Counted from the first letter of the stretch, positions 23,028 to 41,574 are shown. The stretch is DNA of 64,000 nucleotides from Candidatus Micrarchaeia archaeon (GCA_041653635.1 JBAZFC010000001.1:902969-966968), one strand, 5' to 3'. Notes: generated from the letters alone by a model not told the origin. Numbers and translations: made by a program.

Positions 23028-23078
23028 AAAAGTAAAGAAAAATTAAAAATAAGGGGGGAAACCCTGCTCAGGGTTTCC
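23028..23078 (-). terminator. hairpin plus T-tract terminator-like element after the beta-helix surface protein gene
   Basis: Minus strand GGAAACCCTGAGCAGGGTTTCC (9-10 bp stem overlapping the stop codon), followed by CCCCTTATTTTTAATTTTTCTTTACTTTT. Confidence 0.5.
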
Positions 23079-26000: not shown

Positions 26001-26613
26001 TGTGCTGCACCTCCAGGTTGTCCTGCGTGTCCAGCGTGATGCAGGTTCTGTTATCTGAGTTAAAAACGTTGTATGTTGCGGAGCTGTGGTTGTTCTCGGA
26101 CATGAGCAGTCCATAGGTGTTGTTTGTGAAGGTGTTGCCCGAGGCTTCCGCATAATTCCCCTCCAGGGCGAGCCCCTGGAAGTTCCTTTCAAAAGTGCTG
26201 TCCGTCACGGACGCATTCTCGCCTGCCACGTAGATGCCGTAGAGGCTGCTGTTGTGGAACAGGCTGTTCTGCACCGTGAGCCCGTCCACGCCGTTCGTGA
26301 TGCCTTCAATCCCATAAGTGAAATTGTAAATCCCGCAGTTCTGTATGGTTATGTTGTGCAGCCCCGTATTGTTTATGTAGAATGCGTTGAGCGAAGCGTT
26401 CCCGGTGATGTTGTAAAGGGTGCCGGTGACGTTGCAGTCAATCAGCAGGTTGGAAACGGAGATGTTCACGCAGTTGCTGCCCACGCTCCCGTTCAGGTCG
26501 CTCGTCGGCCTGTATGTGCCGGACGCCGATATCTCGGCATCGCACTGCAGCGAAACGGCGAAAGAAAGCCCGGCCAAAACAATCAGAACAAGGAAAACGC
26601 CCGAATATTTCAT
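23068..26613 (-). CDS. giant right-handed parallel beta-helix (PbH1/NosD-like) surface protein with Cys-knot stalk and TM anchor
   Basis: ~1181 aa from MKYSGVFLVL (signal peptide). It has long arrays of ~22-aa 'N.(I/V/L)..N....G(I/L)' coils, many N-x-S/T sequons, C-terminal 'CISDADCAVGRVCTAGICV' and 'CTADADCAYNEACSGGSCV' modules, and a final TM helix. The ORF track's Pro-rich extension to 26928 is rejected. Confidence 0.8.
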   Translation of the reverse strand: MKYSGVFLVLIVLAGLSFAVSLQCDAEISASGTYRPTSDLNGSVGSNCVNISVSNLLIDCNVTGTLYNITGNASLNAFYINNTGLHNITIQNCGIYNFTYGIEGITNGVDGLTVQNSLFHNSSLYGIYVAGENASVTDSTFERNFQGLALEGNYAEASGNTFTNNTYGLLMSENNHSSATYNVFNSDNRTCITLDTQDNLEVQHNNLTSCGTYGVEGYDLLNTEFSNNTILRPWMGGIFVNVTAYGWNSNVDLLDNTVNWSFNYSDTYATAAGIALHNSTGGEVRNNVLANNNGTGLSLTKVNNTEITGNEVRDNQFSTSSHGYGVAILYCNDILFDNNLLEGNGYDASTTGFGGMLLAEVTNGLFSMNNISDNVNRAAGTGVPVGVGAVDLENVTFDGNIINSNNGTGLSLAVSLLTDSIGIVVTDNMVANQTDGVSVISAYSLVLTGNAVADNLAYGARLAYSNSSNIQGNSFYGNGNVSAAALYLTSSAFGRIDNNSFDTNENGLHMDTTNLTNVTDNGFTTNGVGLLDYQSSALYIYGNIFNESTNLTAVGLTSADAVFSNNRVHDNAASGVLIFDSGPVGMDSNIIYNHLSAYAAVDLYNSSSASATTNTMHNNTVAIIVDWSNGFTATGNNLINNSLGFWVMTSTNMTLDSNVLTDNSAWQVYLYNSTGGNITGNSLHAVSIVGVGMFVETTSNSDFSGNTVTGTHLVGYAIADESANNTVTSDTVSGAIMGFLIDNSTNATLVGTVSYGNLFGYEFDDYGNATISDATSYDNSVSCLDVSPGNVSLDNFRMWGCGAYITSDENSSINATDLWLGYDNSYGLLYETIYINVTTVADTDNLLLDRGFVSMNISDANVSALNVSATAYIRPKNSCSALRYYNMSGFPQTQDEIITGGDVFTPTTQACTGNVASFRVYSFSGYTASGAIPSTGGSSTMDMAVSGDTAVGGDVTLTVMAGTTPLSGANVKVFYWLNGILQVEDIGNTNSQGEVTFTPAFAGSYKATATKTGYSEEEARFIVSAAATAPVCISDADCAVGRVCTAGICVIEVEEEPEPAPETPTGTGQPAGGCTADADCAYNEACSGGSCVIVQAGACGEYVNHAWVGFNCCADGDCGVGYACTNYNCVQQPRETEVPAGAGTISMPSSTTETAGTPWALVVVAVILGAAVVWWLFVRKP

Positions 26614-26677
26614 GTGCAAAAATACAAAGATAAAATTTATAAAGAGGAATGTGGTTGATTTGGCAAGAGGGGATGAC

Positions 26678-27208
26678 ATGAAAATCTTGATTGCTTTGTT
26701 GGCTTTGGGAATTTTGCTGTTCGGCTGTGCACAGCAGCCGGAAACCGCGGCACCTGGGACCGGGGGCGCCACTGGCGGAAGCGGCGGCGCAGGCGGAAGC
26801 ACCGGGGGCAGCGGAGGGCAGGTCGTTGATGTCGGCGAAACTACCGGCGGAACGGGAGGCGGAAGCACCGGCTCCGGGGAAACCGGCGGCGGGGAAACCG
26901 GAACAGGCGGCAGCGGAGGCGGAATCATAGGGGTTGAGACGCCCGCCAGCGAGGGCGACGTTACCGTTTACATAAGGGATTTCCAGTTCGTGCCGGAAAC
27001 CGTGACCGTGAAGCAGGGGAGCACCGTCTTCTGGGTTAACGAGGACAACGTGCCGCACGCGGTCAGGATGATTGGCGTGATAGACTCGCCTTACCTCGCG
27101 AAGGACGGCGCGCCTTTCTGGCACACCTTCACCGAGAGGCCGGGAACCTACGAGTATTCCTGCAGCATACACCTGTCCATGCACGGGACAGTGATTGTGA
27201 CGGAATGA
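26678..27208 (+). CDS. blue-copper (amicyanin/plastocyanin-like cupredoxin) lipoprotein
   Basis: Lipobox 'LLFGCAQQ', a Gly/Ser/Thr linker, and a cupredoxin domain with ligand pattern 'VPHAV' ... 'YSCSIHLSM' (C-x2-H-x2-M). GAGGGG lies 6 nt before the ATG. Confidence 0.75.
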   Translation: MKILIALLALGILLFGCAQQPETAAPGTGGATGGSGGAGGSTGGSGGQVVDVGETTGGTGGGSTGSGETGGGETGTGGSGGGIIGVETPASEGDVTVYIRDFQFVPETVTVKQGSTVFWVNEDNVPHAVRMIGVIDSPYLAKDGAPFWHTFTERPGTYEYSCSIHLSMHGTVIVTE

Positions 27209-27212
27209 GAAG

Positions 27213-27446
27213 ATGGCAATTCCGCTAGGCTATGTACCGGCGTTCGGGTTCCCGATTGTATTCTGGACGGGCATCCTCGCCGGGCTTTTCATTTTTGCCG
27301 CGGGGACGGTGATGACACTCACTTTCCACACCAAATATAAATTCCCGGTTGATGTGCACCACAAGCTCGCATTCATCGGGCTTGCGCTGGCTATTATACA
27401 TATAATATTGGGGCTTTCCATTTACGTGTTCCCAATCTACGTTTAA
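27213..27446 (+). CDS. small 2-TM His-containing membrane protein coupled to the cupredoxin gene
   Basis: 77-aa ORF starting 4 nt after the cupredoxin stop. Histidines ('VHHKLAF...AIIHIILG') sit in or near the second TM helix. Confidence 0.5.
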   Translation: MAIPLGYVPAFGFPIVFWTGILAGLFIFAAGTVMTLTFHTKYKFPVDVHHKLAFIGLALAIIHIILGLSIYVFPIYV

Positions 27447-27453
27447 TCCGCAC

Positions 27454-27939
27454 CTATTTCTTCTTTTCCCCGGCGTCCACCTGGTCAGCCCATTGGGAGA
27501 GCCGCAGCTCGCTCCTCGCAATCGCAGCATCGGACTCAAAACCCGCCTCCTCAAGAATTTGCGCGGCGTCCTCAATCTTTCCGGCCCCCTGCGCCATATT
27601 TGCGATGCGCTTCGCGCACAACGCCCATCCCGGCTCACCGGTCGCCTTGTACAATGCGATTATGACGCGGGCCGCCTTCAGGATGTTGCTTTCCCCTTCC
27701 GCGCCCTTGGCATCCTCCGGCGCCGTGAGAAGTATTCTTGCCATCCTCAACGCCGCGGTCTGCCTCCCGGCCTCCGCGTATTTTACGCCAGCGTTGGCTA
27801 AGTCGCATATTTCCGCATATGCCATGGCCATGCCCCATTCCCTGGTGCGGCGTATCGCCTCGGCAAAGCCGTATTTCGGCTTGGGGCATCCGCCGAGCAT
27901 TTCCGCCACGGCTGCGGCTGAAATATGTCTGGATTTCAT
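27454..27939 (-). CDS. hypothetical all-helical protein
   Basis: 161-aa Ala-rich ORF with no recognised motif. It is the last gene of the minus-strand trio 28362->27454. Confidence 0.45.
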   Translation of the reverse strand: MKSRHISAAAVAEMLGGCPKPKYGFAEAIRRTREWGMAMAYAEICDLANAGVKYAEAGRQTAALRMARILLTAPEDAKGAEGESNILKAARVIIALYKATGEPGWALCAKRIANMAQGAGKIEDAAQILEEAGFESDAAIARSELRLSQWADQVDAGEKKK

Positions 27940-27986
27940 GGTAGGTCACCTGTAATATTATATGTGGCAAAACAAATAAAAATGAG

Positions 27987-28145
27987 TTAGTGCCTCAGCT
28001 TGAGCCAGCGCGCCACTTCCTCCTTTTTCTGCACGCACTGCGCGCAGAACGCATGCGTCATCCCGTCCACGTCGGTACGCTTGGAGGCCTCGCTATGCAC
28101 GATTCCGGCATCGCACAATGCGCATTTTTCCTGCCCTTCAAACAT
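27987..28145 (-). CDS. 52-aa zinc-ribbon protein (paralogue A)
   Basis: MFEGQEKCALCDAGIVHSEASKRTDVDGMTHAFCAQCVQKKEEVARWLKLRH, with CxxC...CxxC. AGGTG lies ~5 nt before the ATG. The ORF-track entry 27987-28283 is an upstream extension. Confidence 0.5.
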   Translation of the reverse strand: MFEGQEKCALCDAGIVHSEASKRTDVDGMTHAFCAQCVQKKEEVARWLKLRH

Positions 28146-28203
28146 AACGCCACCTGTTATGTATGATATGCAAGAGGGAATAAAAAGGGCGTGCAATGCG
28201 TGC

Positions 28204-28362
28204 CTAATCCTTCGTCCCGAGCTTCCTCGCCACTTCTTCGGCATTGCCCGCGCAGCGCTCGCAGAATGAGTAAGCCACTCCATCCAGCCCGGTCCTCCTC
28301 TTCACGGCGCAGTCGGACAGGTCCTTCCTGCACAGCGCGCAATTCTCTTTCAGATGCAACAT
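28204..28362 (-). CDS. 52-aa zinc-ribbon protein (paralogue B)
   Basis: Hand-translated as MLHLKENCALCRKDLSDCAVKRRTGLDGVAYSFCERCAGNAEEVARKLGTKD. It aligns without gaps to paralogue A (19/52 identical by my count). Not in the ORF track because it is under 60 aa. Confidence 0.5.
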   Translation of the reverse strand: MLHLKENCALCRKDLSDCAVKRRTGLDGVAYSFCERCAGNAEEVARKLGTKD

Positions 28363-28496
28363 TCAAACGCCTCTTCCAGTTTTCCGCATCCGGCAACCGG
28401 CACCCGGTTCCCGGCAATCCTTTGCGGAACAGCTCCACACATAGAAGAAAGCAAATAAAAAGGTGGAGGAATGAAGGTATTTGGAACGGGGATGCT

Positions 28497-28814
28497 ATGG
28501 CGGGAAAAATTGCTGGTGGGGCAGGAAGCGGTGCGCCTTCTTATTCTCCATCCGACATAAGCCGCCTGGAAAAATCCGCGCTGGACCGGGCGAACAAGGC
28601 GGTCTCCGCGATAGAGAACGCAATCGCATTGTGGGAGGCGTCCCCGCAGAAGCCGCAGGACATAGGGCTCAGGGTGGGGCGGCTCGTGCATTTCTACGGA
28701 GAAATAACCAAGTGGGAGAGGAAGATGCTGAAATCCGCGGGAAGGAAGCGTGACATGTTGGCGAGGATAGCTCTCCTCCGGGAGTTCAGCGACATCTGCC
28801 ACGCGTCGGCATAG
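28497..28814 (+). CDS. small helical protein immediately upstream of the giant ORF
   Basis: 105 aa from MAGKIAGG, taken as the first plausible Met not overlapping the divergent genes. It ends 12 nt before the 1559-aa ORF. Confidence 0.4.
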   Translation: MAGKIAGGAGSGAPSYSPSDISRLEKSALDRANKAVSAIENAIALWEASPQKPQDIGLRVGRLVHFYGEITKWERKMLKSAGRKRDMLARIALLREFSDICHASA

Positions 28815-28826
28815 GGGAATGGAAAC

Positions 28827-31800
28827 ATGGCAAGGCCAGCACAGCGGGGGAGGGAAGAGGTTCCTGAGGCCCAGCGTGCGGAGGAGGCGGCAAACGAATT
28901 CCTGAGGCAGGGCGCAGAGCAGCACGCGCCCGTATCCCCGCAGGTGCTGGGGCAGCTGGAGAGCGCGGAGGAAACATTGCGCTCCGCGCTGCTCGTCGCG
29001 GGGGAAATAGACCGGACATTAGGGCTCTCTCCGGAGCAGGCGGGCTCGCGGCTCGGGGAATATATGGAAAGGATGCGCGGCGCGCTGGAAGAATTCGCGC
29101 AGGCGCAGGTAGGGGGCGTGGAGGGAAGGTTCGGCCAGCCCGCGCAGCAGATTCTTGGGGAACTGGAAAACGCGGAGAGGATGCTCGCGGGCGGGGATTC
29201 CTCCGGGGCGCAGGCCGCTTTTGACAATGCGCAGATGCACCTTGAGCAGCTCGCAGAGGTTGTGTCCCGCGCAAGGGGGCTTTTCGCCTCAGGCGCGCCG
29301 CCTGCGATTGCGGACGCGATGGATTCCGCCGCCTCGTTCTTCATGCAGGGGGACGCGATGCGCGCAAGGATTCTTTTGGACGCCGCGGACGCGTTCCTCC
29401 GCAACAGGGATTTCCTTCTCAGCTCGGTTGGCGATTATTACCTTTCCACACTCTCGGATTTCGCGGGCGCAGTTGCGGATGCGCGTGAAGGCGTGGAGCA
29501 CGAGGCCGCCGCTGCGGGGCTTGCGGGCTTTGAGGCGAATTTGAAGGAGGATTGGGGAAGGATTTCCGGCATAATAGCGGAATGCACGGTGCTCATGGAA
29601 AGCGGGCCTGGGAGAGCTTCGGAGGAGGGGAGCGCAAAATGGCTCGCGGGGAAGGCGATGGACGCGCTCCGTGAAGGGAATGTGGAAGTGGCCGCGCTCG
29701 CATACTCGCTTGCGCGCATGGAGGCGGATGCGAAGGGGCTGGACAGAAGGAAGGGCGCGGAGGATTATATAGATAATTATGCTGATGCGCTGCGCGCCGT
29801 GAAGGAGGGTGCGGAGCCGGAGGAGCTTGTGCGGCTTGCCTCGGATGTGCACGGAGGGGCGCTGCGGATTGAGGCGGAGAAGCTTGCGGCAGGGTATTCT
29901 GCACGCGAGGGGGCCTCAGCCGCGGAGAATGAGAGGAGGGAACGTATTTCAGCCGCCGCGGATATTGTGGCGATGAGGGTTTCTGAAGGGGATTTGCAGG
30001 GGGCGGAGCGCCTCCTTTACATGGCAACGCAGTACGCGAAGGCGCTGGATTCCACTCCCCATGCATGGAGGACCGGGCTGGAGAACTCGCTTGAGATGGA
30101 GAATGCGATTGATGCGGAGAGGATAAGCGGCACGGACTCGCTCGCCCAATTCGGGGGGGCGCTGTTGCTCCAGGATGCGGCTACGCAGGCGTCCGCGCTT
30201 CGGGCATCATTGGCTGGGGCAGGATGGGGCGAAGCGGTTGCGCACCAAACTGAAATGGTTTTCGGTGCGCTGCGCTCAGTGGAGGCACTGGCAGCCGAAG
30301 GGAAGGGTGAGGAGGCCGCCGCGCTGCTCGCGCTCTCCGCGCTATATGTGAATGCGGTGGGAAGCATTGCCCGGAGAGATGCGGGGTCGAAGATAACCTC
30401 GCTGGATGCGCGGTTTGATTCGTCGCAGATGGAGGATGCGCTTCTTGGTTTTGCGGAACCGGGTGCGGACCTGGATTCCCTCTCTTCGCTTTTCGTACAG
30501 GGCTATTCCGCCAGCGAGCGGCTCGCGGTGGAGATGCAGGCCGAGGCGCTGTACGCACTTACGGAAGGGCGCTCGCTGGGGAGGGACACCGTGGGGAAGG
30601 CGCTGGAGATTGCACAGCAGCGCGCCTCGCAGGGCGACCTTGAGGGCGCGCGCCTGCTGATGGGATACGTGGAGGATTATTACGGGATCGCAGGGGCGGT
30701 GGAAACCGGCAGGATGCTGGAAAATGGAAACCCGGAACTGGAAACCGTGGAAGCGGGCTGGAGGTATTCGCAATTCTCCGGCGAGAATACGCCCATCCCC
30801 GGCTACGCTTCAGGGATGCAGGACATGCTGGATTGCATGAGGTGGGAAATCGCAATTACCGAGGGAAGAAGGGAGGACACCTCCGAATCCCACCGCGAGG
30901 CTCAGGGGATTTTCCTGCGCGGGGCCCAGAGGATTGCGGACACCGGGCGGCTGATGTCCGCATTTTCCGAATACAAGGATTTGTATTTCAGCGAGCAGCC
31001 GGACGTTTCCAGCGTGGAATTCCGTACCGGCGTGCATGCGATGCGCCTGCGGGAGGCCGGGGGGATTCCATCCGCCGCGGTGGAGGCGCCAGTTGCAACC
31101 GTGGAGGTTTCCGCAGCCGGGCCGTCCATACGGTTCGCGGACGTGCGCGCATACGATTTGGCGCACCATGGGGAGGACGAGGCGCTGAGGGGAAGCCCCA
31201 CGCTGGAGCAGCTGCTCGCGAACTGCGAGGCCGCCGCGCTAAGCGGGAACGTGGATGCATACAATGAGGCAAAGGGTGCGCTGGAGGAACAATTCGGGCT
31301 GGTTGCCGAACGCCTCGTAAGGGCCAGGAACATAGAGAATTCAATTGCGCAGCTTAACCTCGCAGGGGAGGGGCTTGGAAGCATAATCAAATCATATTAT
31401 GATTCGCTGGAGGGAAGCGAACTAACGGACGCGGAAAAGGAAACCGTGAGGCATTCGGCGCAGCAGAAGGCAATGGAGCTGGACGGGAGGAGGCAGGAGC
31501 TCTCGCTCCGCCTCGGCGGGATGCTCTACTCGCTGGACGACTACCTGGATGCGTCCTCTGCCGCGCTCTCCGATTATGCGGAATTCCTGAAGGATTTCAA
31601 GGTGGAGAGGGACAACGCCGCCGCGATAATGACCGGCGCTTCCTTCCTCACCGCGCAGATGCAGGAGCTGGAAAATTATGCGAAGACGCTCACGCCCACC
31701 GCAGCGCCGCCGCAGGCGCGGGAGGCGCTCTCCCAATCAAGGGAATTCCTGGAGGACGCGCTGAAGGCGCTGGTGCAGGGCAACCTTCCGCTCGCGCAGA

Positions 31801-33506
31801 GGGCGTACGCGGCCTCGGTCGGGCACAGGATTCTGGCGATGGAGGGCTATATGCTCGGCGGGAGCGGCGAGGTCTCCGCTTCCGAGCAGGAGCGCGGCTT
31901 CACGCAGGGGGAATGGGGGGAGTTCTCGGATTATTTCAAATTGCAGAAGGATGCGTTCGCGCTTGCGATTTCCTCCCCGGACCAGAGGGGCGAGATAGAG
32001 TGGAGGCAGAAGGCAACCGGGCTGGTGGAGCTCGCGGTGTTCGGCATACCTATGCATGAATTGAGCCAGTCGCTCGCTGATTTCAATTCTTCGCAGAGGG
32101 AGGTGCTCGGGCTTGTTTCCGAGCTTGCGAAGCCGGAGAACTCGCTATTCGTGGGGCAGAACCTGTCCGATGCGGAGCGGATGATAGAGGAGATGCAGGG
32201 GCGCGTGGAGGACAATAGGTTCTGGTTCCATGCAGGGATTACCGCGGGCGGCACGGTTGTGGGCTTCATCCCCGTGGTCGGGCCGACGCTCACCACCATA
32301 ATATTCACAAGCACGGCGATAGATTCTGTGGTCACGGAATACGAGGCGACGGGCCAGGTCTCTGCGCAGAACTGGTGGAACCTCGGGCTCATGATTGGCA
32401 CGGGCATGCTCGGGGCCGCATCGCAGATGCTCCGCACCGCGCAGATGGAGGCGATGGAAATCGGGGCGCTCGCAAGCGCGCGCAGCATAGGGCGCGTTGC
32501 GACAGGTGTCAATATTGCGAGCCTTGGGGTTGGCGGGTATTTCATGGTGGATATGAGCATCGCCGCCTCGGAACAGTTCGCTGCAGGAAATGCACGCGAG
32601 GCCGTCATTAGTTTAGGGATGGCGCTCATGCCCGCGGTGCACCTAGGGAGCGCCGCTGGGGGTTTTGTTGCCGCGCGCGAGATGCGGGCAGAACAGAGGG
32701 CTGCACGCGAGCAGGCGGCCCGCATGGCTGTCGCATCCGCGCTTGAGCTCATAGAAAGAAGGCGGCCCGCGGAGATAAGTATCAGGGAGGTTACGCGGGC
32801 CCTGGAGGAGAGGGTCCGGCCCCCTGCGCGGGAAGAGGCGGCAACACGCGAAGCCGGGGCTGGAGCGGCTGCCGCGCGCACCGTGGAAACCGAAGGCAGG
32901 GCGCCAGGCGCAGAAGCCGCCCTCGCCACAGGAACAGCGAATACCGGCACCGCATACAGGATGCAACAGGGCCGCGCAGGCGCGCACATGGACGTGGAAC
33001 AGATTGATTCAACGCTGCGCAGAATGGTGACCACCAGCACAACCACGGAGGAGAGGGCTGCGGCGCTGGACTCTTTCGCGAGGCTTTCCCCGGAGGAGCA
33101 GGCGCTTTTCATCTCAGGGCTCCACGAGGAGAGGAGGAATGCTGAGATAGCCTACCTCACCGAATTCGCGGCGCTCAACTCGGAAGTGGGCCGTGCAATC
33201 GAAAGCGCATATGCCGGGCAACTTGGGAAATATGCCGACGTGGGGCCCGGCGTGCTCAGCGACATATACATACAGGCGGGCTCCCTCCAGCAGGCGAGGC
33301 AGTACCTCGCCCAAGCGCTTGGGATAGAGCTCGTGCCGTACAGCAGAATGCTCGTAAACGAGTACGTGGGCTTCAGGACGCTCGCGGATGACGGCTTCCT
33401 TTTCGGCATGCTCACCTCCGGGGACATGCTTGGCGCAATAAGGGAGATGCATCCCGGCGGCAGGGTGACATCCATAGAATTCATAACTGCCTCGGTGGGC
33501 GCATAG
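28827..33506 (+). CDS. giant (1559 aa) Ala-rich alpha-helical protein with C-proximal 4-TM block
   Basis: Uninterrupted 4.7-kb ORF. About 1150 aa are Ala/Glu/Leu/Arg-rich helical sequence. Four hydrophobic segments follow ('FHAGITAGGTVVGFIPVVGPTLTTIIF','WWNLGLMIGTGMLGAA','VNIASLGVGGYFMV','VISLGMALMPAVHLGSAAGGFVAA'), then a ~270-aa tail. Confidence 0.8.
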   Translation: MARPAQRGREEVPEAQRAEEAANEFLRQGAEQHAPVSPQVLGQLESAEETLRSALLVAGEIDRTLGLSPEQAGSRLGEYMERMRGALEEFAQAQVGGVEGRFGQPAQQILGELENAERMLAGGDSSGAQAAFDNAQMHLEQLAEVVSRARGLFASGAPPAIADAMDSAASFFMQGDAMRARILLDAADAFLRNRDFLLSSVGDYYLSTLSDFAGAVADAREGVEHEAAAAGLAGFEANLKEDWGRISGIIAECTVLMESGPGRASEEGSAKWLAGKAMDALREGNVEVAALAYSLARMEADAKGLDRRKGAEDYIDNYADALRAVKEGAEPEELVRLASDVHGGALRIEAEKLAAGYSAREGASAAENERRERISAAADIVAMRVSEGDLQGAERLLYMATQYAKALDSTPHAWRTGLENSLEMENAIDAERISGTDSLAQFGGALLLQDAATQASALRASLAGAGWGEAVAHQTEMVFGALRSVEALAAEGKGEEAAALLALSALYVNAVGSIARRDAGSKITSLDARFDSSQMEDALLGFAEPGADLDSLSSLFVQGYSASERLAVEMQAEALYALTEGRSLGRDTVGKALEIAQQRASQGDLEGARLLMGYVEDYYGIAGAVETGRMLENGNPELETVEAGWRYSQFSGENTPIPGYASGMQDMLDCMRWEIAITEGRREDTSESHREAQGIFLRGAQRIADTGRLMSAFSEYKDLYFSEQPDVSSVEFRTGVHAMRLREAGGIPSAAVEAPVATVEVSAAGPSIRFADVRAYDLAHHGEDEALRGSPTLEQLLANCEAAALSGNVDAYNEAKGALEEQFGLVAERLVRARNIENSIAQLNLAGEGLGSIIKSYYDSLEGSELTDAEKETVRHSAQQKAMELDGRRQELSLRLGGMLYSLDDYLDASSAALSDYAEFLKDFKVERDNAAAIMTGASFLTAQMQELENYAKTLTPTAAPPQAREALSQSREFLEDALKALVQGNLPLAQRAYAASVGHRILAMEGYMLGGSGEVSASEQERGFTQGEWGEFSDYFKLQKDAFALAISSPDQRGEIEWRQKATGLVELAVFGIPMHELSQSLADFNSSQREVLGLVSELAKPENSLFVGQNLSDAERMIEEMQGRVEDNRFWFHAGITAGGTVVGFIPVVGPTLTTIIFTSTAIDSVVTEYEATGQVSAQNWWNLGLMIGTGMLGAASQMLRTAQMEAMEIGALASARSIGRVATGVNIASLGVGGYFMVDMSIAASEQFAAGNAREAVISLGMALMPAVHLGSAAGGFVAAREMRAEQRAAREQAARMAVASALELIERRRPAEISIREVTRALEERVRPPAREEAATREAGAGAAAARTVETEGRAPGAEAALATGTANTGTAYRMQQGRAGAHMDVEQIDSTLRRMVTTSTTTEERAAALDSFARLSPEEQALFISGLHEERRNAEIAYLTEFAALNSEVGRAIESAYAGQLGKYADVGPGVLSDIYIQAGSLQQARQYLAQALGIELVPYSRMLVNEYVGFRTLADDGFLFGMLTSGDMLGAIREMHPGGRVTSIEFITASVGA

Positions 33507-33515
33507 AGGATAAGG

Positions 33516-35135
33516 GTGGAAGGGCCGGACGGGGTTGCGCACGACGTTTACGCGAAGAGGCAGGAGCTCATGCCAGACCACAGAGCAGATGCCGAAAGCA
33601 ACAGGTCCGGGATACCTGCGCCCCCAGTGATAACCACCAGGATGGGCGGGGAGTCGCTCCAGTACATGCAGCCGGACGGCACGCTGTCCGCGTACGGGAT
33701 AATGGATGACATACTGGAGTACCACGGGGTGCTGCCCATGGCCGGCAGGAACGTGGAGGTGCGGGCGATAGGGGGCAGCAGCGTGAGGGACTTTGAATTC
33801 AGCCCGGAATTCACAGAAATGCTGGCCACGGATCCGCAGAGGTTCTGGGAGGAATACGGGTTCGCGATGGCCGGCTCGTATTTCATGGGCGTCGGAGACA
33901 GGCATGCGCGCAACGTGTTCCTGCTCAAGCTGGAGCTCGTAAACCCGTCTGCGGGGGACCTTGCGGCGCTCGGATATGAACTCAGGACGGGGCCCGCAGG
34001 GGAGAGGCGGCTTGTGCAGGCCTCCGAATTCCCCGCCCGACACCTGGAGATGGACGCCGAAGGGAGGATAACCATGACCTCCTTCGCCAACATAGACATA
34101 GACTCGGCGGGTTCGTACCTCGCCAGCCGGAGGCCGGACGGCAGCTTTGACTTCTCTGCCATGAATGAAGACTATGGAAAGGATGCCGTGCACAAATTCT
34201 TCGTGAGGCTCACCAGGAATGTGAACATACACGAGGCGGCGCTTGCGGCCTCGGAGGGAAGGGAACCGCAGTTCGTTGCCGTGGAAGATGTAGTGCGGCA
34301 GGCATTCGGGCAGCCGGGCAGAGGGCCGCTTTTCAACGGAATACTTCAATGGTTCACGGAATTCGGGAGGGAAAGCGAGTATGTTGATGCGCTTGCAGCC
34401 ATGTTCGGCGAGAGTGCGGGTCAGCACGCAGGCCTGGGCATCCCCATGCTGGAGCCGGAGATGGCAAGGTTCAGGGAGAACGGCTACTCATACCGCCCCG
34501 AACCGATGAATGGGGACCCGATTACGCTGATAGAATTCTCCGATGGCAGGCAGGTGATGCGGCCGAGGTATGAATATGCTGCATCCTACCCGGAAGAATT
34601 CAATGGCGTGTTCCCGCAGGGCAGGAAGGTCTATGTGGCGCCCGTGCCTGCGGATTTCCCTGGCGCGGTTGGATTCGGGGCAAATACTGCGTTCGCAGTA
34701 TTCGGGTCCGCGGCAGAAATTCCCCCGGAGCTTGCCGGAAGCGCGGTGGAGGCAATAAGGTTCGGAAGCGCGATAAGGGCGGGCGTTGGCTTCGGGGAAA
34801 TCACCGGCCAGTCCACGACTGAATGCGGGCAGCTGCCGGCGCTGCAATCTCTCGCTGAGGGTGGCGGCCCCGCAATGGTAAGAAGCTGGATCAGGATAGG
34901 AGAACTCATAATCAGGACGGAACGCGAGGAGCGCACGCTTGCGGAAGCCGCGGCTTCGGATGGCGACACATCTGCCCTGGACACTTATACTTCGGAAAGG
35001 TACCCGCCTGGCGCGGCAACGCAGCCGCGGCCTAGGGAACAGGCACCGCGTGCAGAAGAAGAATCGCCATCTTCATCAGAAGAAGCCACTAGGGAAGAGG
35101 CAACGCGGGAAGAAGCAACGAGGCCCGAAATCTAA
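33516..35135 (+). CDS. PI3K/PI4K-like (atypical) kinase-domain protein
   Basis: GTG start 6 nt after a GAGGA that overlaps the giant ORF's stop. 'FMGVGDRHARNVFLL' matches the PI3/PI4-kinase catalytic loop G-x-GDRH-x-x-N. 'FANIDIDSAG' sits in the DFG-equivalent position. The C-terminal tail carries a tandem 'EEATR' repeat. Confidence 0.55.
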   Translation: MEGPDGVAHDVYAKRQELMPDHRADAESNRSGIPAPPVITTRMGGESLQYMQPDGTLSAYGIMDDILEYHGVLPMAGRNVEVRAIGGSSVRDFEFSPEFTEMLATDPQRFWEEYGFAMAGSYFMGVGDRHARNVFLLKLELVNPSAGDLAALGYELRTGPAGERRLVQASEFPARHLEMDAEGRITMTSFANIDIDSAGSYLASRRPDGSFDFSAMNEDYGKDAVHKFFVRLTRNVNIHEAALAASEGREPQFVAVEDVVRQAFGQPGRGPLFNGILQWFTEFGRESEYVDALAAMFGESAGQHAGLGIPMLEPEMARFRENGYSYRPEPMNGDPITLIEFSDGRQVMRPRYEYAASYPEEFNGVFPQGRKVYVAPVPADFPGAVGFGANTAFAVFGSAAEIPPELAGSAVEAIRFGSAIRAGVGFGEITGQSTTECGQLPALQSLAEGGGPAMVRSWIRIGELIIRTEREERTLAEAAASDGDTSALDTYTSERYPPGAATQPRPREQAPRAEEESPSSSEEATREEATREEATRPEI

Positions 35136-35164
35136 GTGCCATGGGGCAAAAAGGAATTTGTGGT

Positions 35165-35785
35165 TCAATGCACCGTTTCAAGCCTTGCCATGGAGGAATG
35201 GCCGGTTTCACGGTCGCATACTGCGATGAGGCCGTTTCCCGCCGCGGCACTGGCCCCCGCCCGCCTCAGCGCCACTTCAATCGCAGTCTTTATGACCGCC
35301 CAGCCCTGCCTGCCGTCCCCTCTGTATTCCTGCACGATTCCCCGCACCACTATCCTGCGCCTGGCGTCAAAAAGCAGGAAGTGCGTCGCGCTGGCGCTGT
35401 CATAAACCATGAAGCCGTATTCCATCCCGGTGGAGAAGGACTTGCCGCCAGCCCTGAGGCCCTGGAAAATGGCGCCCATATCCGTGTTATCCGTACTGCA
35501 GTATTGCAAATATGGCCCGGGCAGGTAGAATAACTTATCCGGGACGCCAAGGAGGCGCTCCAGGTCCGCGTCCCATCCTGTGCCCATTGATTTGAGGAAA
35601 TTGATTGCTTCGGAAGCAGGCACCTCTTTAGGATTTGGGATAGTTTTGTCCTGCGGGGGTGTGCGGGCCTCCATCAACTTACGGTATGCCTCGGTCTTGT
35701 AATAAGGAACGCTCTTGCCGCCGTTCCCATTCTTGGGGTCGGAATTGTGGTTTCCTGCAGCAGCGTTCGGGCCCATCCTTATCAT
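35165..35785 (-). CDS. hypothetical protein with possible Cys-His-Asp (transglutaminase/papain-like) core
   Basis: 206 aa. 'YCSTDNTDMGAIFQGLRAGGKS....GFMVYDSASATHFLLFDA' resembles the transglutaminase-like C...H..D arrangement. This is a weak call made by eye. Confidence 0.4.
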   Translation of the reverse strand: MIRMGPNAAAGNHNSDPKNGNGGKSVPYYKTEAYRKLMEARTPPQDKTIPNPKEVPASEAINFLKSMGTGWDADLERLLGVPDKLFYLPGPYLQYCSTDNTDMGAIFQGLRAGGKSFSTGMEYGFMVYDSASATHFLLFDARRRIVVRGIVQEYRGDGRQGWAVIKTAIEVALRRAGASAAAGNGLIAVCDRETGHSSMARLETVH

Positions 35786-35837
35786 GGTGTTAATTCCGCA
35801 TGAAAAGTATTAAAACCCGCCACACCAACAGTTACGC

Positions 35838-36320
35838 ATGAAGCTCCCATCCTCATTGGGGAAGATGAAGGCGGGCTCGCTCCCGCGCTCATTCTACGGC
35901 GAGCTGGAGGAATTCTTCTCTTCTTTGAAGCCGGGCACCACGATAACGGGCAGAACCAGTTTGCTCACGATATGCAGGCGCCTGCAGGACGCGAAAACGG
36001 GGAAGGTCTCCGCGAAGCGGCTGAAGGACGCGGAGAGGATGATAAAAGCGCTATGCGCGGCCGCGGAAATAAGGGGGCTGCAATACGGGAAGGTGGCGCA
36101 GCGGGAGGCTCCGGCACCGGGCAGCCGCATTGCACCTGAAAGGCATCCCATTCCCGAGGGAATTGTAAAAGCCGGGCCCGCCTCCGTGCCGAGGGAAATC
36201 CTTGAGCAGAGGAAGAGGGTTGCGGACGCCGCGGAGAAGGCGGGAATACTTCCCCCGGACCTTGATTACAGGAATACAGACCTGAGGCACATGGCAAAAC
36301 GGCTGGGGCTGGAAAAATGA
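35838..36320 (+). CDS. hypothetical protein, translationally coupled to the HicB-like gene
   Basis: 160-aa ORF whose stop overlaps the hicB-like ATG (ATGA). No HicA-like motif seen. Confidence 0.4.
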   Translation: MKLPSSLGKMKAGSLPRSFYGELEEFFSSLKPGTTITGRTSLLTICRRLQDAKTGKVSAKRLKDAERMIKALCAAAEIRGLQYGKVAQREAPAPGSRIAPERHPIPEGIVKAGPASVPREILEQRKRVADAAEKAGILPPDLDYRNTDLRHMAKRLGLEK

Positions 36321-36580
36321 GCAGGATGCGCGTGGAGGGATACGACGTCGTGGTGGTGTCCGAGGGCGGAATCTTTACCGCTTACGTGCCCAAGCTTCCT
36401 GGATGCGCGGCCCGCTGCAAGGCGGAGGAAAGGGAACACCTCGCCTTCCTTGTCGCGAGGGCGATAGCAAATCATCTAATCTCCGCAATAGTGTCCAGGC
36501 AGGAGAGGGAACTGCTGCCTCCTGCGATGAGGCGGGATGAGAAACTCAACATTGAGCCGCCGAAGGAAGAGGAACCATAA
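36317..36580 (+). CDS. hicB: HicB-family (UPF0150) antitoxin-like protein
   Basis: 'YDVVVVSEGGIFTAYVPKLPGCAARCKAEEREHLAFLVARAI' matches the HicB N-terminal pattern (....GG.....P.LPGC...G.T.EEA......AI). Confidence 0.6.
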   Translation: MSRMRVEGYDVVVVSEGGIFTAYVPKLPGCAARCKAEEREHLAFLVARAIANHLISAIVSRQERELLPPAMRRDEKLNIEPPKEEEP

Positions 36581-36634
36581 CCCCGCGCAAACCCTTTTAT
36601 TCCTTATTTACCAATCTGGCTGCAGGTGGAATGA

Positions 36635-37618
36635 ATGTCTGAAACCTTAGTGATAGAAGAGGCGCTGGTGAAGGAAATCCTCCAGATGAAGGACGTAATC
36701 CCCGCGGTTGAGACCGCATTCAGGGAGAGGGGGCACGGCAACGTGGAGATGCCGCCGAAGATGTACATAATGTACCCGACCGGGGATTTGAGGGTGATGC
36801 CAGCATATTTGAAAAATCTTAAGCAGAGCGGGCTGAAGGCGGTTACCGTTTTTCCGAATAATCCTAAGGAGAAGAACATCCCGACAGTTCTTGCGACCGT
36901 AATCCTGGTGGATGTGGACAGCGGTGTGCCGCTCGCGGTGATGGGCGGCTCATGGCTCACCGCGATGAGGACGGGCGCGGCGGGCGCAATCGCGACCAAG
37001 CACCTCGCGAAAAAGGGCGCGAAGAACATCGCGTTCGTAGGGACCGGGATGCAGGCGCACACCCAGCTGATGGCGCACAAGGAGGTCATGAAGATAGAGA
37101 AGGTCTATGCGGTGGATGCGAACGCGGCGAGCGCGGAAAAATTCGTGGAGTTCGCGAAATCGCTGGGGTTCCAGGCGGAGGTTGCGAACGGTGCGAAGGC
37201 GTGCGCGGATTCGGATGTGCTCATCACCACCACGCCGGTGCACCAGCCGATAGTGAAGAAGGAGTGGATACACCCCGGGATGCACATAAACGCAATCGGG
37301 GCGGACGCGCCTGGAAAGGAGGAGCTGGAACCGGAAATCCTCACGCAGGCAAAGGTCGTAATAGACGACTGGGAGCAGGCGTCCCACTCCGGCGAGATAA
37401 ACGTCCCTGTTTCAAAGAAGATGATTTCCAGGGAAAACATCGCCGCGGAGCTCGGGGATATCGTTGCTGGGAAGAAAACCGCCCGCACAAGCGACGCGGA
37501 TGTTACAGTATTTGACTCCACCGGGCTTGGGATTCAGGACATCGTCACTGCAACAATAGTGTTGGAAAAGGCGAAGGCGCAGAACAAGGGGATTAAAGTA
37601 AAACTGGCGACGCTCTAG
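36635..37618 (+). CDS. ornithine cyclodeaminase/mu-crystallin family enzyme (archaeal alanine dehydrogenase-like)
   Basis: 'GDLRVMPAY', 'WLTAMRTGAAGAIATKHLA', 'IAFVGTGMQA' and 'INAIGADAPGKEEL' are OCD/mu-crystallin motifs. Confidence 0.85.
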   Translation: MSETLVIEEALVKEILQMKDVIPAVETAFRERGHGNVEMPPKMYIMYPTGDLRVMPAYLKNLKQSGLKAVTVFPNNPKEKNIPTVLATVILVDVDSGVPLAVMGGSWLTAMRTGAAGAIATKHLAKKGAKNIAFVGTGMQAHTQLMAHKEVMKIEKVYAVDANAASAEKFVEFAKSLGFQAEVANGAKACADSDVLITTTPVHQPIVKKEWIHPGMHINAIGADAPGKEELEPEILTQAKVVIDDWEQASHSGEINVPVSKKMISRENIAAELGDIVAGKKTARTSDADVTVFDSTGLGIQDIVTATIVLEKAKAQNKGIKVKLATL

Positions 37619-38181
37619 GCGCTCAGCTTTTCCGCCTTTGAGATGCCTTGCGCAAGCATGGAGTGGCCGGGGTAAAGGCTGGCACTCTCTGCCAGCACCT
37701 GCTCCGCGCCAGCAACGCACCCCAGCATGAAATGGGGATGCCTGCCGGAATTCACATCGCTTGCGATATCCCTCAGTTTTATTAGGGGCACCTGCAGCAC
37801 GAACAGGTGGCATTCGCGGCCGTTGCCGCATGCGGGCGCGTAGCATTCCGAAACCTGGTCCTTGGAGGCCTTCAGCCCGAGCTGCGAAATGGATATGCGT
37901 CGCAGCGATTCAAGCGGATTTTCCCCATCCTCCACTATCCCAGACGGGCCCAGCGCCTTTCCGCCCTGCTTTTTGTAGAGCAGGAGGAATTTGGGCTTCC
38001 CTGAATCATAGGACATCACTACGAGAGAGCAGGCGGGAAGGGCCATCTCCCGGGCGAGGGTGAGAGATTCCATCTGCCTCTGCTTCCTTGCGAGGATTTG
38101 CAAGAAGGACGACCGGGCGTTCCTGAGCCGCAGCTCCTCCAGGATTGGCCTTTCGGTGCTGGTCGGTTTTGGTTCCGGCAT
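37615..38181 (-). CDS. hypothetical protein with degenerate Nudix-like box
   Basis: 'GGKALGPSGIVEDGENPLESLRRISISQLGL' fits G-x5-E-x7 of the Nudix box but lacks REx2EE. It is the last gene of the minus-strand run IPK -> 38853-38236 -> this ORF. The ORF is open to 38223. Confidence 0.35.
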   Translation of the reverse strand: MPEPKPTSTERPILEELRLRNARSSFLQILARKQRQMESLTLAREMALPACSLVVMSYDSGKPKFLLLYKKQGGKALGPSGIVEDGENPLESLRRISISQLGLKASKDQVSECYAPACGNGRECHLFVLQVPLIKLRDIASDVNSGRHPHFMLGCVAGAEQVLAESASLYPGHSMLAQGISKAEKLSA

Positions 38182-38235
38182 ATGGAAGATGATTTGTGTT
38201 AAAAAGTTTATAAAACAGTGCATTATGGTGCAGGA

Positions 38236-38853
38236 TTAGTGCACTGGGAGAAGCTCAACTTGCACAAGCGGGCTGCCGCTTTCGCGCGATGACGCAGCCG
38301 CCAGGAAAACGCCGATGCTTGTTATGCTAATATATGCCTGCTTGGAATGGATGAGCATGCCCATGACGGCATTTGGCACGCGGTAATCCCCTAAGAGTGC
38401 CCTTATCTTCTCCTCCGAGGCGGCCATCATGGTCGCGTCCGGTCTGCCGCGCTTCACTGCGTCCGTATCCGGCACTTCGCCGTACCAGCCGAGGTCCTCC
38501 AGGAATATGCGCACTTCGCCCCTTTCCGATATCTTTGCAATCACATCAACCCTCCCATCCCGTGCAAGCAGGATTCTATCGCCAACAATCTGTAATTGCA
38601 GCAACGGGTCGGCAGCGGCAATCGCGTTAAGGGCGTTGCATATCCTCAGCATCAGCGCATTTGATACTCCGGTCACACGCACAAGCACCCCGTCCGGAGC
38701 CGGCTTCGGGCCTGAGGATGCCTGCGTGGTTGGGATTGGTGTCGGCGTGTTATTCTTTGCCCTTGCCGCAGGAGTGGGCGGCGGACGCGCGGCCTGCTTA
38801 TAGCCAGCAGGAGGGGGCGGCGGGCCCCTGCGTGCGCCATTATCATCAGCCAT
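38236..38853 (-). CDS. hypothetical protein with Pro-rich N-terminus
   Basis: 205-aa ORF, 35 nt downstream of the IPK gene. No recognised motif. Confidence 0.45.
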   Translation of the reverse strand: MADDNGARRGPPPPPAGYKQAARPPPTPAARAKNNTPTPIPTTQASSGPKPAPDGVLVRVTGVSNALMLRICNALNAIAAADPLLQLQIVGDRILLARDGRVDVIAKISERGEVRIFLEDLGWYGEVPDTDAVKRGRPDATMMAASEEKIRALLGDYRVPNAVMGMLIHSKQAYISITSIGVFLAAASSRESGSPLVQVELLPVH

Positions 38854-38888
38854 ACGGCAATAATATGGGAAAGAGTGTTTTTAACTGT

Positions 38889-39641
38889 TTAGTCCACAAG
38901 CGTGCAAATCGCCTTCTCGCCCTTGAGGAGTTTCTCTATCCGCTCCGGGTGCAAGGCATTGGCGATGTAGGCCGGCTTCCCGATTTTGAGCAGCTCCTCC
39001 AGCTTGCCGCGCATCCCGCCGGTCACGTCGGCGGTTTCCGCGCCCTTCACGTGGGTGAATATTCTTTGGATATTTCCCTGGTTTATTTCCGGGACGATTT
39101 TTCCGTCCGCCATTATCCCATCAATATTTGTGCCGAGGATTACCCTCTCCGCTTCCTTCCCAAAATATGAAACCAATTGGTCGCCGGAGCAGACCGCCCC
39201 CCCCTTTTTTTCGTCAAGCATCATGTCCCCGTGCAGCACCGGAAGGAAGCCGAAGGAAAGGAGGGAGAAAACTACTCCGGAATTGAGTTCGCTTATCCTT
39301 CCGTTGGATAATTTCCCGATGGAGGCGGGGGGCACTGCAACCGCAGGAACGCCGTTCTCCAGCAACGCATCCACCACCGCCTGGGAAAGCCGCGTGCATG
39401 CGGCATGCGTGAGCGCCATCCCTTCCTTCTGGGCGTCGGTCCGCACGCCTGCATCCAACTTGTATTTGAGCACCAGGGGGTGCCCGAAGGAGCCCGCGCC
39501 ATGGATCAGGATGAAGTCGCGGATTCCGCCCTTCCACGCACCTCCGAGCATCCGCGCCAGCGCATCTATGTTCTTCTGGTCCAGCTCCATGTACCCGTTC
39601 TTTTTTGTGAGCACGGAACCGCCCAGTTTCAGGACCTGCAT
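38889..39641 (-). CDS. isopentenyl phosphate kinase (amino-acid-kinase fold)
   Basis: 'VLKLGGSVLT', 'ILIHGAGSFGH', 'GDMM' and 'DVTGGM' with ~250-aa length match IPK. It lies divergent from the ubiX/ubiD/acnX genes. Confidence 0.8.
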   Translation of the reverse strand: MQVLKLGGSVLTKKNGYMELDQKNIDALARMLGGAWKGGIRDFILIHGAGSFGHPLVLKYKLDAGVRTDAQKEGMALTHAACTRLSQAVVDALLENGVPAVAVPPASIGKLSNGRISELNSGVVFSLLSFGFLPVLHGDMMLDEKKGGAVCSGDQLVSYFGKEAERVILGTNIDGIMADGKIVPEINQGNIQRIFTHVKGAETADVTGGMRGKLEELLKIGKPAYIANALHPERIEKLLKGEKAICTLVD

Positions 39642-39692
39642 AAGAAGAATACATAAGGGAAGGTTAAAAAAGAAGGGCTAACGAATTCAATT

Positions 39693-40229: not shown

Positions 40230-40233
40230 TATT

Positions 40234-41523: not shown

Positions 41524-41574
41524 TCGGCATTAGACGTAGATAGTTATTTATACTCCCCAAGGGGATATCTGCTT

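Follow-up and report, generated by a model that had tools for sequence, protein, structure and literature searches.

Here we describe a conserved three-gene cassette, built around a giant protein with a new kinase-like domain, in a 64,000-nucleotide (nt) stretch of the genome of a Candidatus Micrarchaeia archaeon (GCA_041653635.1, JBAZFC010000001.1:902969-966968; hereafter the window, with positions counted from its first letter). The conserved unit spans 28497-35785, about 7.3 kb, and consists of an open reading frame (ORF) of ~105 amino acids (aa), the giant gene and a convergent ORF of ~206 aa. The cassette is undescribed, with searches of the literature finding no account of it or of the giant-kinase family, and has so far been seen only in Micrarchaeota, which belong to the DPANN archaea. 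Two ORFs that a sequence-only reading of the locus had taken for a 1559-aa giant and a separate 539-aa kinase-like protein are one giant gene, encoding 2,102 aa when intact, and the core of its C-terminal module is a new protein-kinase-like (PKL) family. These structural and genomic statements are made with high confidence. As an overall explanation, we consider it probable, on balance, that the cassette encodes a membrane-anchored giant kinase scaffold or effector with two small partners.

The ORFs, their spacings, a GDRH motif and a raised GC content, all noted in the sequence-only reading, are present in the locus, which is also uncharacterised, as had been proposed: none of its nine ORFs had a meaningful match in Pfam, NCBIfam, PADLOC (zero matches) or PHROGs. 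Nothing was found in PHROGs for the three cassette genes, and matches to families of unknown function (E 0.006-0.05) were confined to a 161-aa ORF, two zinc ribbons and an 87-aa ORF that lie beside them. A single tRNA (Leu) was the only Rfam family in the window. The product of the 206-aa ORF recurs unchanged, save for a start three residues further in, on a contig of 1,027,568 bp, which puts the genome of this DPANN archaeon at no less than ~1 Mb.

A three-gene cassette at a variable chromosomal site

In the window, the ~105-aa helical ORF (28497-28814, plus strand) precedes the giant gene (28827-35135, plus strand; 2,102 codons if intact) by 12 nt, and the ~206-aa gene (35165-35785, minus strand) converges on the giant. 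This layout was found at all nine cassettes examined, as far as the contigs reach: those of the window and of loci L004 and L028, and six further cassettes, namely those of P0008 and a neighbouring 7,685-aa gene (both in L029), P0002 (L030), P0024 (L032), P0006 (L033) and P0014 (L034). The L004 contig begins inside the giant, so that the downstream partner is seen and the position of the 105-aa gene lies beyond the contig; for the 7,685-aa gene only the upstream partner lies within the locus, and for P0009 only the downstream paralogues.

Homologues of the 105-aa protein (88-124 aa) are encoded immediately ahead of the giant and in the same orientation in L028, L029 (twice), L030, L032, L033 and L034 (E 6e-5 to 5e-31 by BLASTP and hidden Markov model searches). 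The gap to the giant ranges from an 8-nt overlap to 74 nt, and the family shares the motifs E.A.A.W.A...KP, W...ML and F..IC. The tight coupling of this small ORF to the giant, suggested earlier by its 12-nt gap, is borne out by an adjacency that is kept in relatives. Homologues of the 206-aa protein (146-271 aa; E 1e-4 to 1e-47) lie tail-to-tail with the giant in L004, L028, L029, L030, L032, L033 and L034, in one to three (possibly four) tandem copies, with the 3′ ends of giant and partner between overlapping by 9 nt and lying 32 nt apart. A nine-sequence alignment of this family is invariant at L64, L79, P82, G124, D140, R143, V147 and W162. It contains no conserved Cys or His column, and the earlier description of the window's copy as a Cys-His-Asp ORF is therefore not retained.

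Close relatives differ at this chromosomal site: some carry the cassette, some lack it and others have a different large ORF in its place. L005 and L008 carry, contiguously, a cupredoxin gene, the 161-aa ORF, zinc ribbon 1, a 160-aa ORF, the 87-aa ORF and the ornithine cyclodeaminase (OCD) gene, with nothing corresponding to window ~28146-35837. The giant and its convergent 206-aa partner occupy this site in L004 and L028, together with the 105-aa gene in L028. In L006 (18-3855) and L007 (3-3316) the site is occupied by an unrelated Ala/Arg/Gly-rich ORF, cut by the contig in both cases and at least 1,047 and at least 861 aa long, respectively, which is followed by a convergent ORF of 230-240 aa. 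The site behaves as a hot spot for giant-gene cassettes. The large ORF of L006 and L007 was considered as a diverged family member and rejected, neither copy being related to the kinase family. The 230-aa ORF of L006 resembles a 120-aa ORF within the paralogue array of L029 (E 1e-6).

These comparisons also set the limits of the cassette. The 9-kb extent drawn in the sequence-only reading is too wide, because the 161-aa helical ORF (27454-27939, minus strand), zinc ribbon 1 (a 52-aa CxxC..CxxC ORF; 27987-28145, minus strand) and the overlapping 160-aa and 87-aa ORFs (35838-36580) are local backbone genes, kept where the cassette is missing and not found beside cassettes elsewhere. The 160/87-aa pair is conserved beside the OCD gene in relatives without the cassette and is therefore not part of it. 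Zinc ribbon 2 (28204-28362, minus strand), a 52-aa CxxC..CxxC paralogue of ribbon 1, lies within the presence/absence segment and is not a member of the conserved cassette. The zinc ribbons and the 161-aa ORF were rejected as cassette members: ribbon 1 is retained in the cassette-free L005 and L008, no zinc-ribbon homologues were found beside the cassettes in L028, L029 and L030, and the 161-aa ORF is absent beside the further cassettes examined. A conserved gene combination thus exists in relatives, as had been anticipated, but it is not the predicted one of giant, GDRH protein and zinc-ribbon pair.

One giant gene interrupted by an in-frame stop codon

The 1559-aa ORF (28827-33506, plus strand) and the 539-aa ORF (33516-35135, plus strand; GTG start) are separated by 9 nt. 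Positions 28827 and 33516 share a reading frame, and only a premature TAG (33504-33506) and three sense codons stand between the two ORFs. Logan contig L001 is 99.988 % identical to the window over 26635-42733 (16,099 nt), and the two sequences differ at just two positions, 33506 (G in the window, C in L001) and 33508 (G and A). L001 therefore reads TAC AAG (Tyr-Lys) where the window reads TAG AGG, and its gene is called as a single 2,102-aa product. The orthologue in L004, from the metagenome-assembled genome (MAG) DeMMO3_23 (73-80 % identity, >2,227 aa), is unbroken across the stop site (VGAYRVTVEGPDG), and that in L028 (P0003, 2,259 aa) is also continuous. Conservation in the family alignment runs through the stop, which falls at the near-invariant Tyr (TAC) of a GxVGAY loop, a column that is Tyr in 29 of 31 sequences. 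What had been read as a dedicated kinase-like partner is fused to the giant in L001, in the orthologues and in every aligned relative; the 539-aa ORF is a truncated C-terminal fragment of the giant itself. TAG recoding (Pyl) was considered and rejected: TAG terminates 10 of the 34 ordinary genes in the window and is therefore not recoded, and tRNA-Leu is the only tRNA there.

In the sequence-only reading, the two ORFs were genes of one operon, the second being translated separately from the GTG at 33516 by way of a Shine-Dalgarno-like element overlapping the stop. The window does have the corresponding order of TAG, 9 nt and GTG, the downstream 539 codons are intact, and the same two substitutions that form the TAG also create a GAGG 7-10 nt before the GTG, comparable to GAGG/AGGTG elements ahead of several other window genes. 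Given that this GAGG is similar to the ribosome-binding elements of some neighbours, re-initiation at 33516 is conceivable. However, all other copies of the gene, from 99.99 % down to 25 % identity, are fused, and the near-invariant Tyr lost to the stop lies between the beta1 strand with its Gly-rich loop and beta2. Since the stop lies inside the conserved N-lobe, the 539-aa product would lack the first strand and the glycine-rich loop, leaving a partial ATP-binding lobe. A stand-alone start here was not demonstrated for any relative; the short matches that start nearby (P0010, P0016 and P0029) come from contigs whose lengths are 1.2-6.5 kb or unknown, and could be fragments. As a property of the family, the two-gene model is already largely refuted, and we consider it highly improbable.

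The window allele of the single gene would be either a recent knock-out or a consensus error. There is an appreciable chance, though short of an even one, that the TAG is not biological at all, representing an assembly consensus or polishing error, or a minor allele, in an organism with an intact 2,102-aa gene. The only two mismatches with an independent assembly in 16,099 nt fall within 3 nt of each other (a clustering with a chance of ~4e-4 by our estimate, if differences were independent and scattered), and therefore look like a single local event or artefact. No second lesion was found downstream, and three other public contigs match the window at 100 % identity wherever they overlap it, which indicates a nearly clonal population. 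Conversely, a real and very recent nonsense allele would look identical; moreover, none of the other public contigs spans the stop site, and JGI metagenome contigs yielded no exact match to either junction allele. A single-protein metagenome scan returned only a 1.7-kb identical fragment. The contigs L002 (ENA), L003 and L031 (both JGI), each 100 % identical to the window, end or start exactly at 34857, inside the giant's C-terminal domain, and at 39074, inside an amino-acid kinase gene. Short-read assemblies seem to break at these two points, perhaps through strain variation in the giant gene, or else the two datasets may share reads. The lesson for annotation is that one in-frame stop codon, which may be an assembly artefact, gave a single gene the appearance of an operon of a giant and its enzyme partner.

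The C-terminal module is a new and remote branch of the PKL superfamily

The PKL domain and a helical pre-domain extend over 33123-34415 (plus strand), from residue ~1433 of the giant to 1559, across the stop, and through the first 300 residues of the 539-aa ORF, on which the residues below are numbered. In a 30-sequence family alignment, D128 and N133 of a D-x-H-x-x-N motif are invariant (30/30), H130 is present in 27/30, and K14 is present in 27/30 and invariant in alignments A2 and A3. I193, D194 and D196 of an I-D-x-D motif are likewise invariant (30/30); this putative metal-binding motif, at the DFG position, reads IDID in the window (34092-34103, plus strand) and IDTD in most members. 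The catalytic residues of a PKL enzyme, in the form of the GxVGAY loop, the beta3 Lys, DxHxxN and IDxD, are therefore all present in the family; the window's own copy has the stop in place of the Gly-rich loop's Tyr. The catalytic loop proper (D-R-H-A-R-N, residues 128-133; 33897-33914, plus strand) lies within GVGDRHARN, an exact GxGDRHxxN. The family consensus is G-x-x-D-[RG]-H-x-x-N, with neither the second Gly nor the Arg conserved (GISDRHGRN in L004, DGH in many members, DRR or DRN in a few).

An AlphaFold2 model of the window's 539-aa part, built with the family alignment, had a pLDDT of 92.3 and a pTM of 0.91. A Foldseek search of the PDB with this truncated model gave no significant match, and the 30 best matches consisted almost entirely of atypical kinases (HipT, PRPK/Bud32, HipA, DNA-PKcs, ATR, mTOR, PI3K and PI4KII-alpha), with CtkA lower down the list. 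The complete domain was modelled from P0001, a 78 %-identical orthologue (residues 1534-1983; pLDDT 85.6). Of its 790 matches in the PDB, four had E <= 1e-3: Rio2 (4gyi; E 2.1e-5, prob 1.00), VPS34 (5.4e-4 and 7.6e-4) and p110delta (8.5e-4). These were followed by mTOR, DNA-PKcs, ATM, aminoglycoside (APH) and macrolide (Mph) phosphotransferases, MET and HipA, and the best 50 of the 790 were all protein or lipid kinases or antibiotic phosphotransferases, as expected of a bilobal PKL fold. Foldseek searches of viral structures gave nothing significant. With TM-scores of only 0.2-0.3 and no profile match in the PDB, the module is assigned to a remote, new branch of the PKL superfamily. We consider it likely that the module is an active phosphotransferase.

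The sequence-only reading had recognised a PI3K/PI4K catalytic loop in the 539-aa ORF. The loop is of kinase type, is conserved in the family and is supported by the predicted fold; the module does not belong to PF00454, and the family has IDxD in place of DFG. Resemblances to the PI3K, PI4K and PIKK enzymes of PF00454 (VPS34, p110, mTOR, DNA-PKcs, ATM and ATR) are nevertheless several. Their loop, GxGDRHxxN, follows the pattern of the G-x-x-D-R-H-x-x-N found here, their metal-binding motif also begins I-D, and the shared PKL fold brings VPS34 and p110delta to significance, with mTOR, DNA-PKcs and ATM just behind. In PIKKs, too, the kinase is C-terminal on a very long alpha-helical protein, with a conserved helical region before it and a short tail after it. 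Against this, the window's module had no PF00454 match at E <= 1 and no profile match to a PI3K or PIKK chain in the PDB, and the relatives P0004, P0012, P0014, P0020 and P0024 had no Pfam match to PF00454. The giant differs further in its IDxD and GxVGAY motifs, in a 40-65-residue insertion between catalytic loop and IDxD in the window's subfamily, in an extra beta-rich C-terminal domain and a hydrophobic membrane block, and in being archaeal with two dedicated small partner genes. The data do not show a specific relationship to PI3K/PIKK kinases, and we think it unlikely that the Micrarchaeota giants are a prokaryotic counterpart of the PIKK/PI3K architecture of helical repeats, DRHxxN kinase, tail and small partners.

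RIO kinases are native to archaea, where they are small, soluble ribosome-biogenesis factors. Rio2 is the best structural neighbour (4gyi) of the complete domain and, like it, is a compact atypical kinase without a long activation loop; however, there is no sequence or profile similarity, the TM-score is ~0.25-0.31, and RIO kinases are not domains of giant membrane proteins. HipA-type kinases are cytoplasmic toxins of 300-440 aa with an upstream antitoxin, and the HipA motif is D-x-H-x-x-N. HipA and HipT thus share this catalytic loop and the presence of small partner proteins encoded alongside, and a HipT/HipA structure was the top match of the truncated model (8ezr_B, E 0.056) and among those of the complete one (3tpv, E 6.7e-3). 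By contrast, HipA_C had no Pfam match, the Foldseek similarity (E 0.056-0.85 for the truncated and 6.7e-3 for the full model) was not significant and was weaker than that to Rio2 and PI3K, and HipA-type kinases are not C-terminal modules of 1,300-7,700-aa proteins.

Beyond the PKL core, a family-specific C-terminal extension (34416-35135, plus strand) comprises a beta-rich domain with NG..., DGR and FP.GR.VY motifs, a long helix and a low-complexity tail. The beta-rich domain and helix are conserved in the family (pLDDT 85-98), and no significant structural neighbour was seen for the extension. In many relatives the terminal motif is R-[LM]-P-[PI]-G-[YF]-G, which is degenerate in the window (RYPPGAAT). 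The tail itself (35060-35135) is acidic and contains a perfect tandem EEATR-EEATR-EEATR.

The helical region and hydrophobic block of the giant

From N- to C-terminus, the giant consists of a conserved region of ~230 aa, an Ala-rich alpha-helical region, a hydrophobic block and a conserved module of ~700 aa. Its first ~1,130 residues are rich in Ala, Glu, Leu, Gly and Arg and almost free of Lys, and no hydrophobic segment or signal peptide was found at the N-terminus. In iterated profile searches, the first ~230 residues were common to several members (e.g. P0034, P0018 and P0003; E 1e-72 to 1e-75), and a helical unit of ~110-130 residues recurred several times in larger members. Self-BLAST of the giant, P0006 and P0008 detected no internal repeats at E <= 1e-3.

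The Gly-rich hydrophobic block (giant residues ~1136-1284; 32232-32678, plus strand) probably forms three or four membrane-spanning helices. The earlier description of a four-helix transmembrane block holds for the existence of a near-uncharged, Gly-rich block of ~150 residues, but not entirely for the number of helices: Kyte-Doolittle analysis gave three clear peaks, at residues ~1152 (1.69), 1239 (1.31) and 1269 (1.46), and a weak one at 1194 (0.76). Each of the four predicted helices contains 0-1 basic and 0-1 acidic residues. Arg is abundant on both sides of the block and the first loop is acidic, a charge pattern consistent with an N-in/C-in topology for an arrangement of four helices. 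The block is shared by members of the ‘short’ subfamily (P0001, P0003, P0024, P0030 and P0032). A role in cell-cell interaction, as proposed in the sequence-only reading, is not favoured in the form of a surface adhesin, as the charge pattern suggests cytoplasmic domains and there is no signal peptide. Between the block and the pre-kinase region lies a linker of variable length: at giant residues ~1337-1369, L004 (4051-4521) has an extra ~100-150 residues, and the linker of P0003 is similarly expanded.

Distribution of the family

With the 539-aa ORF as query, exhaustive HMMER searching of 1.84 billion representative proteins yielded 35 clusters. The match lay mostly near the C-terminal end of proteins of 2,000-7,300 aa, with other placements in P0017 (mid-protein, 6,174 aa), P0023 and P0026. 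All 16 of the taxonomically named members were assigned to Micrarchaeota, Micrarchaeia or Bilamarchaeaceae, and a scan of GTDB genomes with the same ORF found no close relative. Members range from 1,300 to 7,700 aa and occur in several copies per ~1-Mb genome; P0002, P0004, P0012 and P0014, for example, carry locus tags of one MAG.

The most extensive locus, L029 (GCA_046331685.1, contig JAXLQI010000002.1, 235 kb), encodes three giants of 6,069, 5,879 and 7,685 aa within ~75 kb, of which their genes take up ~59 kb. Both giants with 5′ ends in the locus have an upstream partner of their own (~91-108 aa), and arrays of 146-208-aa ORFs lie between the giants. Additional enzymatic domains occur in some members: the 7,685-aa protein has a PolyA_pol (nucleotidyltransferase) Pfam match, P0052 has an HD domain (residues 1750-1887), and P0002, in L030, contains two complete tandem kinase-like modules (residues 4866-5370 and 5600-6135).

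Evolution and composition of the cassette

Relative to L004, the ratio of non-synonymous to synonymous substitution (dN/dS) was 0.18-0.25 for the giant on both sides of the stop and 0.32 for the 206-aa gene, compared with 0.036 for OCD, 0.040 for UbiX and 0.105 for the amino-acid kinase; dS was similar (0.6-1.0) for all genes compared. The cassette therefore evolves 2-6 times faster than its housekeeping neighbours, still under purifying selection, which indicates that its genes are real and constrained, but fast-evolving. Relative to L028, the giant is 39-48 % identical and OCD 83 %.

GC content is 0.61-0.63 over 28-35 kb of the window and ~0.55-0.58 in the flanks, and the same excess is present in all three orthologous cassettes (window, L004 and L028). 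The sequence-only reading had called the region rich in GC and GCN codons, and an analysis of GC and codon usage agreed with the raised GC but not with an unusual codon choice. The GC3 of the cassette (0.70-0.74) is within the range of the other window genes, and only GC1 and GC2 are raised, because the proteins are rich in Ala, Gly, Arg and Glu and poor in Lys. The bias is thus compositional rather than one of foreign codon usage, and an excess at codon positions 1 and 2 with ordinary GC3 provides no evidence of a recent foreign origin.

A recently acquired foreign island, whether mobile element, provirus or horizontally transferred block, might otherwise have been suspected from the GC step (0.61-0.63 against ~0.56), from presence and absence among close relatives, and from the toxin-antitoxin genes near other cassettes (ParE in L032, RHH and PIN in L034). 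Besides the ordinary GC3 and the shared GC excess of L004 and L028, it is opposed by the occurrence of the cassette at the same site in lineages whose OCD is only 83 % identical, where it has diverged more than its neighbours, which indicates long residence. No integrase, flanking tRNA or PHROG match was found, and no family member in viral structure space. We regard a recent foreign origin as very unlikely.

Proposed function of the cassette

Taken together, these data lead us to favour a membrane-anchored giant kinase scaffold or effector with two small partners. The hydrophobic block would anchor the giant in the membrane, with both large domains cytoplasmic; the helical region would serve as a long scaffold and the kinase module as an ATP-dependent phosphotransferase acting on protein or lipid. 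The 105-aa protein could be a co-translated chaperone or adaptor for the giant's N-terminal region, and the convergent paralogues could be regulators, inhibitors or substrates of the kinase module, with the overlapping 3′ ends also permitting antisense control. A cassette that evolves rapidly, varies in copy number and is present or absent at a hot spot points to a role at the symbiont-host contact zone or another conflict interface, which we advance tentatively, as a possibility suggested by sequence comparisons.

Several points weigh against this explanation. At TM-scores of 0.2-0.3 the modelled similarity to known kinases is remote, and the complete-domain model is that of a 78 %-identical orthologue, not of the window protein. 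Pfam kinase models gave no match for the 539-aa ORF at E <= 1, and neither this ORF nor profiles A1 and A3 (E <= 10 for profiles) retrieved a kinase from the PDB. The block is only moderately hydrophobic and is detectable in the shorter subfamily only. The copy in the window is interrupted and thus may be non-functional here, the evidence for lineage restriction comes from 16 named proteins and one search with a single sequence, and what is said of the substrate, the localisation and the small proteins' roles is wholly inferred.

The cassette could also be read as an effector-immunity system of the polymorphic-toxin kind, in which the giant delivers a HipA-like kinase toxin and the downstream paralogues are immunity proteins. 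Giant size, an enzymatic C-terminal domain, one to four small paralogues immediately downstream, fast evolution, multiple copies and patchy distribution would all fit such a system, as would HipT and HipA among the structural neighbours and the extra HD and PolyA_pol domains of some relatives. In polymorphic toxins, however, the C-terminal module varies, and here it is the most conserved part while the rest is variable. The giant has no signal peptide and no known trafficking or secretion-related domain, the downstream genes are convergent and not co-transcribed with it, and PADLOC gave no match. Nor does paralogue number track module number: pairwise BLAST confirms two downstream paralogues both for P0002, with two modules, and for P0008, with one, and a partial third ORF in L030 matches the family profile. 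We consider this reading doubtful and retain the anchored scaffold or effector as the better description.

Giants are known from other reduced genomes. Examples among DPANN and CPR symbionts are the SPEARE proteins of Nanohaloarchaeota (PMC6642349) and the giant genes of Omnitrophota (PMC10066038), which are lineage-specific and proposed to act in host interaction; as their acronym indicates, SPEARE proteins combine serine protease, adhesion and restriction-endonuclease domains. The window's family resembles these in being encoded by very large lineage-specific genes that occupy a sizeable share of a reduced genome, and differs from SPEARE proteins in domain content and in having no recognisable adhesion or signal sequences. 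It is set apart from other DPANN and CPR giants by the kinase-like C-terminal module and the fixed three-gene cassette that define it. Titin, twitchin and obscurin are giant scaffolds with a kinase domain near the C-terminus (PMC4472019, PMC3114093), but the analogy is architectural only: their sequence, kinase subfamily and biology are unrelated, and a titin-type scaffold is built of Ig/Fn3 domains whereas that of the window's family is alpha-helical.

Genes and sequence elements around the cassette

Zinc ribbons 1 and 2 are 39.6 % identical (E 5e-9). On the other side of the cassette, the overlapping 160-aa and 87-aa ORFs had been called a HicB-like pair, for which we found no basis: nothing in Pfam, NCBIfam or the PDB matched the pair with thresholds relaxed to E <= 1-10, the 87-aa ORF had no sequence match in the PDB, and neither the two ORFs nor their orthologues in L005, L006 and L028 had a HicA or HicB match in Pfam, NCBIfam or PADLOC. 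The 160-aa ORF (35838-36320) is longer in relatives, at 258 aa in L006 (3908-4684) and 325 aa in L028 (13494-14471), and may be truncated in the window. The C-terminal extension of the L006 homologue looks, by eye, like a HicA-type fold motif, with no Pfam match. The OCD gene that follows the pair (Pfam E 9e-98) is 94, 92, 87, 82 and 78 % identical to its counterparts in five Micrarchaeota genomes assembled from metagenomes.

Upstream of the backbone genes, a 1,286-aa ORF (23068-26928, minus strand; 1,203 aa in L001) has NosD/beta-helix repeats, dense N-x-S/T sequons, Cys-rich modules and a C-terminal hydrophobic anchor, and is probably a glycosylated surface (S-layer-like) protein. It adjoins a Gly/Thr-rich cupredoxin (26714-27208) and a 77-aa ORF with two transmembrane segments.

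An A/T-rich box, (G/A)AATAAAAA / TATTAAAA, resembling an archaeal TATA element, recurs ~25-40 nt upstream of divergent genes, at 28140-28210, 28440-28480 and 35790-35830 in the window, at 9150-9185 in L005 and at 1565-1580 in L008. It occurs at each end of the presence/absence segment and also in the relatives' empty site, and could mark promoters and possibly recombination points.

Discussion

DPANN archaea have genomes of ~1 Mb and depend on hosts, and to our knowledge the molecular basis of their host recognition, attachment and exploitation is largely unknown. The family described here adds to this group costly giant proteins whose kinase-like domain forms a new branch, without sequence-detectable relatives in Pfam or the PDB. 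If the three giants of L029 sit in a genome of ~1 Mb, an estimated 5-6 % of that genome is spent on them. Such costly genes, under purifying selection yet evolving fast, and gained and lost among close relatives, show a pattern typical of genes at interaction or conflict interfaces. Should the domain prove to be specifically related to PI3K/PIKK kinases, Micrarchaeota would be the first lineage of archaea in which giant kinases of PIKK-like form are seen, and the finding would bear on the origin of that eukaryotic signature family and on how a symbiont of 1 Mb can sustain so large an outlay. The cassette also provides a defined enzymatic domain with a mutable catalytic Asp, which could be used in the few existing Micrarchaeota co-cultures.

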